A DNA stretch of 64,000 nucleotides. Origin: Acholeplasmataceae bacterium (GTDB lineage: Bacteria > Bacillota_I > Bacilli_A > ML615J-28 > CAG-313). Positions 29,693-31,012 of this stretch are shown piece by piece; positions within the stretch are counted from its first letter, which is position 1, and each line of letters begins with the position of its first letter. A program made the position numbers and the translations under genes. The notes under the pieces are model-generated. The model was given only the letters and a program-made list of their open reading frames with translations. It did no database searches and had not been told where the DNA came from. The stretch is taken from positions 34,148 through 98,147 of the forward strand of contig DUPC01000031.1 in NCBI GenBank assembly GCA_012838545.1. Reading direction: 5' to 3'.

Positions 29693-31012
29693 ATGATGAG
29701 AAAATTGACATTTATCCAACCTAAATTACATATAGAAGAGGATAACAACGATCCGAACTATTGTAAGTTAAAGATATATCCTCTTGAACGCGGATACGGA
29801 ATGACAATTGGAAATGCCCTTCGCCGTGTCATGTTATCATCTTTACCGGGAGCAGCGATTGTAACGGTCTCGATTGAGGGTGTCGAACATGAATTTACCG
29901 GAATCCCATATATTTACGAAGATGTAACCGAAATCATCTTAAATCTTAAAAACATCATCCTAACCATTAACGATGACAAAAACGCTAAAGGCGATTATGG
30001 TGATGAAATAGTAACTTACCGTTTGGAATTAATCGAAGAATTGCCTTCTTTAAGCGAACAAAGAAAAAAAGGCATCTCGGAAGATAAATTAGTCCACTCA
30101 AAAGAAATTACCGCCGCACATATATCTACGACTTCCTCGGAAATCATTCGCATCGTTAACCCTGAACAAAAGATTTGCACGCTTTTGGCAGGCGGAAAAA
30201 TCAAGATGGAATTATTTGCCCGTAACGGCGTAGGTTATGTCAATGCAGACGACAACAAACGCTTTTGCAAAGAAGGTTCAAGCCGGGTTATCAACCGTTT
30301 ACCGATTGACTCGATTTTCACCCCAATCAAAAGGTGTCGTTACGATGTGGTTAAATCGCGTTACGAAGACAATTTCGATATCGACGAATTAATTTTTGAA
30401 GTTTGGACAAACGGTTCAATCAAACCAACAAACGCCGTATCACTAGCAGCGCATTTCTTAGTAGAGCATTTCCAAATTCTTGAAGACTTAAATGTCTATA
30501 TCAAGGAACGTGCATACATTATGCAAAAAGAGGAAAAAGTATCCAATAAGAAGTTGGATAAAAAGATTGAAGATCTCGACCTTTCAGTCCGTTCTTACAA
30601 CTGTTTAAAACGGGCTAATATCAATACCGTTGGCGAATTGACGCAAAAGACGGTTGAAGAAATGATGAAAGTCCGCAACTTAGGCCGTAAATCATTGAAA
30701 GAAGTAATTGAAAAATTGCGTGACATTGGTTTAAGCTTAAAGAGCGATGACGGATACAATGATTTTGCTGAAGGCGACGATAAAGATGTAACCGATAAGG
30801 ATGAACAAGATTTGGACGAAAACGCTCCGCCTCTTGATACAGGCTTATCCGTAGGTTTATACAATGCACTTAAGAGACAAAACATCAATACTATTGGCGA
30901 CTTGACAAGCAAAACAGTTGCTGAACTTAAAGAAGAATTTGGCTTTGATGCAAAACAAATAAAAGAAATCGAAAACATGCTCAAAGCTAAAGGTTTATCT
31001 TTAAGCGACTAA
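29693..31012 (+). CDS. rpoA: DNA-directed RNA polymerase alpha subunit, unusually long (439 aa) with a duplicated C-terminal domain
   Basis: The NTD ([22 protein letters not shown]) is followed by a canonical alpha-CTD ([41 protein letters not shown]), then an acidic linker, then a second CTD-like HhH ([32 protein letters not shown]...GLSL). No stop codon separates them. Confidence 0.9.
   Translation: [439 protein letters not shown]

Follow-up and report, generated by a model that had tools for sequence, protein, structure and literature searches.

The alpha subunit's C-terminal domain (alpha-CTD) in RNA polymerase (RNAP) is the textbook contact point for upstream (UP) elements and for class I and class II activators, and to our knowledge every RNAP studied carries exactly one such domain per alpha subunit. 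In Francisella, alpha diversity comes from two rpoA paralogues that form a heterodimer, and the delta subunit (RpoE) of Firmicutes has a long, disordered C-terminal region rich in aspartate and glutamate (D/E) that is attached to RNAP. We analyzed a stretch of 64,000 nucleotides (nt) from contig DUPC01000031.1 of an Acholeplasmataceae bacterium (assembly GCA_012838545.1), referred to here as the window, in which rpoA encodes an alpha subunit that continues beyond its canonical alpha-CTD (CTD1) into an acidic linker and a second, diverged domain of the same family (CTD2). Such an RpoA is a rare form of a protein that is very well known and, judging from the residues retained in CTD2, a second reading of promoter DNA by this domain is unlikely. 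We estimate a probability of about one half that CTD2, held on its acidic tether, is blind to DNA and serves in docking or regulation.

Domain structure and DNA-contact residues of the alpha subunit

The window rpoA is a single open reading frame (ORF) of 439 codons with no internal stop. An AAGGAGG motif precedes the gene and its second ATG (29696) stands 6 nt after GGAGG; this second ATG is the likely start and gives a protein of 438 amino acids (aa), as in the public gene calls. The gene and its segments are as follows.

29693..31012, forward strand: rpoA coding sequence (CDS), from the ORF list; Pfam matches to PF01193, PF01000 and, twice, PF03118; 100% identical to the 438-aa public protein P0001
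29693..30532, forward strand: alpha N-terminal domain, residues 1-280, which ends in two helices and whose insert domain carries an insertion specific to the clade; from Pfam and AlphaFold
30554..30745, forward strand: CTD1, a canonical alpha-CTD, residues 288-351, in which the 265 determinant is complete; from PF03118
30746..30832, forward strand: acidic disordered linker, residues 352-380, [29 protein letters not shown]; from the translation and AlphaFold
30833..31009, forward strand: CTD2, a diverged alpha-CTD-fold domain, residues 381-439, with most DNA-contact residues lost, followed by TAA; from PF03118, AlphaFold and Foldseek

As read from the uninterrupted frame, the predicted product is shown to be one polypeptide in which the N-terminal domain is followed by a flexible linker, CTD1, a 29-aa acidic tether and CTD2. 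The two N-terminal families were matched well above their cutoffs, PF01193 with 78.5 bits (cutoff 24) over residues 30-260 and PF01000 with 76.7 bits (cutoff 33.9) over residues 59-210. The wide span of the latter, set against the 119 positions of its model, reflects an insertion of ~40 aa in the alpha insert domain (window ~29960-30110, RpoA residues ~90-140), which occurs clade-wide, is confidently modelled and is conserved in all the aligned relatives. A preliminary description of this DNA, made from the sequence alone, had reported an alpha subunit of 439 aa that is longer than that of Bacillus. The 439-codon ORF stands, although the protein is likely one residue shorter, and the excess over Bacillus is only partly due to CTD2 because the N-terminal insertion and an acidic tail, both found throughout the clade, also add length.

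PF03118 was matched twice in the window RpoA, with 101.1 bits for CTD1 alone and 42.5 bits for the linker and CTD2 alone (gathering cutoff 23.8). The two units align without gaps with 28 of 56 residues identical (50%; BLASTP, E=6e-16), which is far beyond chance, and GFDAKQ stands in CTD2 where CTD1 has the NLGRKS hairpin. When CTD2 was searched against the PDB with phmmer, every match with E<0.05 was an RpoA alpha-CTD (best E 1.6e-8). The full-length AlphaFold model, built from a 56-sequence alignment, has a mean predicted local distance difference test (pLDDT) score of 84, with values mostly above 85 in the N-terminal domain, 80-94 in CTD2 and below 50 for linker residues 356-378, which are therefore predicted to be disordered. 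The four CTD2 helices (387-395, 401-405, 409-414 and 420-432) mirror those of CTD1 (299-307, 313-317, 321-325 and 332-344). Modelled alone from its single sequence, CTD2 again formed four helices with a pLDDT of 87.9, and in Foldseek this lone model matched solved alpha-CTDs from E. coli (3K4G and 1LB2), B. subtilis (1Z3E and 3GFK) and Caulobacter (9ZUM) with TM scores of 0.76-0.83 and root-mean-square deviations (rmsd) of 1.3-2.5 A. The Pfam score, the PDB matches and the models thus show CTD2 to be a true alpha-CTD homologue with a predicted alpha-CTD fold. The preliminary description was accurate in proposing a second helix-hairpin-helix (HhH) unit that aligns with CTD1, lacks the NLG(R/K)KS loop and is joined to it by an acidic linker with no intervening stop; the objection that this unit might not fold as an alpha-CTD finds no support in the models.

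The residues of CTD2 that correspond to the DNA-contacting surface were compared using the 265 determinant, defined by E. coli residues 265, 268, 294, 296, 298, 299 and 302 (PMC10853779), with the numbering checked against PDB chains. All seven residues are present in CTD1, whereas CTD2, with G N G D K Q E at these positions, retains only three of the seven (N268, K298 and E302) and lacks the determinant of a UP-element reader. In the CTD2 of the orthologue from a second species, 'Bacillales bacterium UBA1427', the residues at these positions are A N G D K K E. The changes in CTD2 are therefore R265G (A in UBA1427), N294G, G296D, which places an aspartate at the hairpin glycine, and S299Q (K in UBA1427). 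Arg265 is the central DNA-binding residue of the alpha-CTD (PMC1874639, PMC10853779). The charge of the two domains also differs, with a net charge of +4 and a pI of 9.5 for CTD1 against -1 and 5.3 for CTD2, and the linker holds 13 D/E in 29 aa for a net charge of -11. Canonical UP-element binding by CTD2 is unlikely because most of the determinant including Arg265 is lost and the domain has turned acidic; going by these residues, the reading of UP elements has probably been lost from CTD2.

Conservation is good in the N-terminal half of CTD2, which comprises helix 1, the first hairpin (NINTxGxL) and a KTxxEL motif. In a B. subtilis cryo-EM structure, the alpha-CTD residues that contact the regulator Spx are E254, L256, L258, V260, R261, Y263, N264, K267 and R268, and binding of Spx occludes the DNA-binding Arg (PMC8501982). 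Six of these nine positions are kept in CTD2 (L258, V260, Y263, N264, K267 and R268) and three are changed (E254, L256 and R261), with the B. subtilis residue offset taken from the alignment of chain 6wvj_A. The proposal in the preliminary description that a tandem alpha-CTD would double the contact surface of each alpha subunit therefore divides in two, as the part concerning UP elements is not supported, given the 3/7 determinant, the loss of R265, the aspartate at position 296 and the charge of -1, whereas an extra surface for activator contacts on CTD2 is possible because the helix-1 surface is conserved.

Integrity, distribution and origin of CTD2

The preliminary description had raised an assembly artefact as a possible objection. 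An assembly duplication or collapsed repeat is excluded because the DNA of the two units is only ~53% identical (86 of ~162 aligned nt) with no long exact run. The identical 438-aa protein (P0001) is moreover listed on 34 contigs and occurs in more than eight independent assemblies; in the 23 of these contigs that were examined, which include independent Logan, ENA, NCBI and JGI assemblies, the order was always rpsK-rpoA-rplQ and the sequences had 0-4 synonymous differences. The UBA1427 protein (P0002, contig DCTZ01000005.1) is an 87% identical orthologue with the same length and architecture.

A different form of artefact would be two separate genes, with a small alpha-CTD protein made from an internal start. 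In favor of this, the annotations of GCA_050953125.1 and GCA_041667305.1 (loci L014 and L015) list a 66-aa 'alpha C-terminal domain-containing protein' (P0278), and the in-frame TTG at which it begins (Leu374; 30812..30814, forward strand) has a Shine-Dalgarno-like AAGGA 10 nt upstream. However, the rpoA DNA of both assemblies is identical to that of the window, no stop codon separates CTD1 from CTD2 in it, and the AAGGA is not conserved in UBA1427. A consensus scan found no promoter or terminator signal above background between the two units. No full-length rpoA call is on record for these two assemblies, and we read P0278 as a probable annotation split rather than a real gene boundary; the inconsistency in these records looks to be caused by the unusual C-terminus of RpoA. 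Both the collapsed repeat and the internal-start gene were rejected on these grounds, and that CTD2 is an artefact or a separate gene is highly improbable.

Among the 120 best homologues of the window RpoA, only P0001 and P0002 have the 438-aa length. The next relatives are at most 77% identical and 353-396 aa long, one of them named as an Anaeroplasma bactoclasticum metagenome-assembled genome (MAG) and the others as 'Bacilli bacterium'. An acidic tail follows CTD1 in 110 of the 120 (the other ten did not match the search pattern for the end of CTD1); it is 15-45 aa long with a median of 23 aa, and consists of 53% D/E with almost no K/R. On the evidence of these sequences, the presence of an acidic tail on alpha is itself a characteristic of the whole clade. 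As the relatives end in an equivalent acidic tail, the window linker appears to be the ancestral tail behind which CTD2 was appended. Searches for further CTD2 orthologues returned little, since a word-indexed search with the linker and CTD2 gave only P0278, a scan of metagenome contigs gave none, and a scan of genome contigs found UBA1427 alone. Within the range of these searches, the only carriers of CTD2 are two sister species in a lineage of uncultivated, Anaeroplasma/Acholeplasma-like Bacilli.

In the closest relatives with a single CTD (P0003, P0004 and P0005), the spacer between rpoA and rplQ is 24-38 nt long and contains no remnant of CTD2. A gain of CTD2 in the ancestor shared by the two species is favored because the relatives share the same short spacer with no remnant, and an ancestral CTD2 lost in the relatives was rejected for the same reason. 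For the source of the domain, CTD2 was compared with 632 alpha-CTD-like units extracted from all the proteins fetched. After CTD2 itself and its UBA1427 orthologue, the 98 best matches were CTD1s of its own clade at ~40-45 bits, while units of other proteins reached at most 37 bits. These matches point to an internal duplication of CTD1 rather than an acquisition, and an origin from the proteins with multiple alpha-CTD-like units was ruled out.

Selection on the segments was estimated by the Nei-Gojobori method between the window and the UBA1427-type locus (L001). The ratio of nonsynonymous to synonymous substitution rates (dN/dS) was 0.07 for the N-terminal domain, 0.44 for the linker and 0.16 for CTD2, the last with a dS of about 1.07 and 72% amino-acid identity, whereas CTD1 has a dN of 0 and is 100% identical at the amino-acid level between the two species. 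By these estimates CTD2 is kept by purifying selection and is far less constrained than CTD1. The dS of CTD1 (30554-30745 against L001) was 0.11, which is unusually low compared to 0.6-1.1 elsewhere in rpoA and may reflect a constraint at the nucleotide level, or recent gene conversion or recombination.

The order rpsM-rpsK-rpoA-rplQ (S13-S11-rpoA-L17) at the end of the ribosomal protein cluster is kept in the window and in the homologous loci. Two features complete the rpoA-rplQ unit.

31049..31411, forward strand: rplQ (ribosomal protein L17), from the ORF and PF01196 in equivalent loci
31418..31449, forward strand: terminator-like hairpin and T-run closing the rpoA-rplQ unit, from a consensus scan

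As stated in the preliminary description, rplQ follows with a normal ribosome-binding site. This site reads AAGGAG, and rplQ starts 36 nt past the rpoA stop. No alpha-CTD unit other than those in rpoA was found in the 64-kb window. The ORF after rplQ (31558-32037) matches NusG domain II (PF07009), has a hydrophobic N-terminus and occupies the same position in all the related loci, ahead of genes for ECF transporter ATPases. Further along, two paralogous proteins of ~580 aa with N-acetylmuramoyl-L-alanine amidase domains are encoded at 36268-38004 and 38068-39813 on the forward strand, and a Mur ligase gene lies at 44039-45457 on the reverse strand. The presence of these peptidoglycan-related genes suggests that the organism, although publicly called 'Acholeplasmataceae bacterium', may not be wall-less.

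Possible roles of CTD2

On the evidence above, CTD1 was duplicated internally in the common ancestor of the window species and UBA1427, with the copy placed behind the acidic tail that already existed. The copy would have lost its minor-groove and backbone contacts (R265G/A, N294G, G296D and S299Q/K); it has turned acidic, and it keeps helix 1 and the first hairpin, including the six retained equivalents of Spx-docking residues. In the mechanism that we propose, CTD2 sits at the end of a long, flexible and acidic tether and would offer an extra docking surface to alpha-CTD-binding regulators, such as Spx-type proteins, or to some other partner. A DNA-blind CTD2 carrying such a factor would, we infer, leave CTD1 free for promoter DNA, and the RNAP would present four alpha-CTD-fold domains of which two are DNA-competent and two are not. 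A more specific form of this proposal is a separation of function in which CTD1 binds DNA while CTD2 either captures Spx-like regulators or gates the access of CTD1 to DNA, with four alpha-CTD-fold modules in each holoenzyme; in this specific form we put it forward only tentatively.

Several observations weigh against a DNA-blind docking module. CTD2 keeps N268, K298 and E302 and might possibly bind DNA in a weak or altered manner, and some promoters do not require R265 (PMC1874639). Retention of the conserved helix-1 residues, which are in part structural, may reflect maintenance of the fold only, and just two orthologous CTD2 sequences exist, which makes the mapping of surface conservation weak. 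In addition, tblastn with a B. subtilis Spx query found no credible match in the 64-kb window, a result that bears on the window only.

Three other explanations for CTD2 were weighed against the docking module. The acidic tether and CTD2 might fold back onto the basic DNA face of CTD1, or CTD1 and CTD2 might form a pseudo-dimer, so that CTD2 serves as an intramolecular regulator that tunes or autoinhibits binding to UP elements and to non-specific DNA; in a variant of this, the ancestral acidic tail already performed the function and CTD2 simply contributes bulk or affinity to it. Such a role accords with the presence of the acidic tail throughout the clade (median 23 aa, 53% D/E), with the charges of -11, -1 and +4 on the linker, CTD2 and CTD1, and with a disordered linker that is long enough to reach back. 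The linker however evolves fast (dN/dS 0.44), and what CTD2 conserves is a specific helix-1 surface and not charge only, which leaves intramolecular regulation unlikely. The alternative closest to the preliminary description, where CTD2 binds DNA and activators as a second alpha-CTD and doubles the UP-element contacts per alpha, can draw on the retained fold, on N268, K298 and E302, and on the extra CTDs of other lineages (P0215, P0217, P0261 and P0132), which keep 6-7 of the seven determinant residues. The replacement of R265 by Gly or Ala and of G296 by Asp, the changes at N294 and S299 and the pI of 5.3 all argue in the opposite direction, and we regard a second DNA reader as improbable.

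Finally, CTD2 could be a nearly neutral appendage, a duplicated domain that is tolerated on a flexible tail with no specific role and is slowly diverging. The very narrow distribution in two species and the much faster evolution of CTD2 compared to CTD1 (72% versus 100% amino-acid identity) are what such an appendage would show, and similar duplications at the tips of the tree in other lineages suggest that these events are frequent and short-lived. On the other hand, the dN/dS of 0.16 was obtained at a dS of about 1, the reading frame is free of stops and frameshifts in both species, and CTD2 has an intact hydrophobic core and a fold that its single sequence suffices to predict with confidence. 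A neutral CTD2 is accordingly judged quite unlikely. If the docking module is the true role of CTD2, it would show that evolution can separate the DNA-binding and protein-docking functions of the alpha-CTD, giving a natural separation-of-function design in a textbook target of activation and a template from nature for the engineering of alpha subunits that carry additional modules for docking regulators. Practical consequences are limited, as the organisms are uncultivated and the trait occurs in two species only.

Comparison with other alpha-CTD architectures

An exhaustive HMMER search of 1.84 billion representatives with CTD1, linker and CTD2 as the query gave 15,975 matches, of which the best 150 were examined. 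Most of these 150 are not RpoA but proteins with 2-13 tandem alpha-CTD-like (PF03118) units, such as an SNF2 helicase fused to four units (P0122, 1361 aa), a three-unit protein that also matches sigma70_r4 (P0150) and arrays of 11 units (P0121 and P0124). These arrays resemble the window RpoA in having repeated PF03118 units joined by linkers, but they lack the RpoA N-terminal domain, and CTD2 was not acquired from them because none of their units is as similar to it as its own CTD1. Alpha-CTD-like arrays are thus widespread outside RpoA.

Six of the best 150 matches are RpoA proteins or RpoA fragments with at least two CTDs: P0215, P0217, P0194 (with the full-length member P0273), P0261, P0132 and P0259. 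Like the window RpoA, these metagenomic proteins combine RpoA N-terminal domains with repeated PF03118 units. In four of them (P0215, P0217, P0261 and P0132) each CTD copy keeps 6-7 of the seven determinant residues, unlike the window CTD2 with three, and the idea of a double UP-element reader is more plausible for these four than for the window because their copies keep the determinant. P0132 contains three near-identical repeats of a CTD and a linker. The relatives of P0215 all have a single CTD, which places its duplication at a tip of the tree as well. P0259 (528 aa) comes from the broad clade that includes the window species and carries two additional degenerate units, which score 20.5 bits against the window CTD2 compared to 44 for CTD1s. 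As its extra units are not specifically related to CTD2, the two events appear to be independent, and a shared origin was rejected as unsupported by this score. A GF..KQ hairpin is common to CTD2 and the extra units of P0259 and may be a convergence towards a generic HhH motif. Judged by these sequences, RpoA proteins with two or three CTDs are sporadic and of independent origin in unrelated uncultivated metagenomic lineages; duplication of the alpha-CTD in RpoA therefore recurs, with the DNA-contacting residues kept in some cases.

According to the preliminary description, this architecture is not known to have been described. No published description of tandem alpha-CTDs in RpoA was found in the literature searched, a search limited in its coverage, and nothing on the alpha-CTD arrays outside RpoA or on recurrent duplication of the RpoA CTD was found there either. 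The architecture is nevertheless not unique, given the RpoA proteins with two or three CTDs in other lineages.

CTD2 shares its Pfam family and its predicted fold with the canonical alpha-CTDs of E. coli (residues 249-329) and B. subtilis (3K4G, 1LB2 and 1Z3E), and likewise is attached to alpha through a flexible linker and conserves helix 1 and the first helix-hairpin-helix. It differs from them in being a second copy on the chain behind an acidic tether, in lacking R265, N294, G296 and S299, and in being acidic. The alpha 1 and alpha 2 chains of Francisella RNAP (PDB 6WMP) are both among the PDB matches of CTD2, and Francisella represents another natural route to non-identical alpha-CTDs in one RNAP, whereas in the window RpoA the two CTDs are placed in tandem on one chain. 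The acidic tether of the window RpoA and the tails of its relatives are also reminiscent of the acidic region of delta (RpoE), a likeness that would be one of functional analogy only, as delta is a different subunit with no sequence relationship to them.

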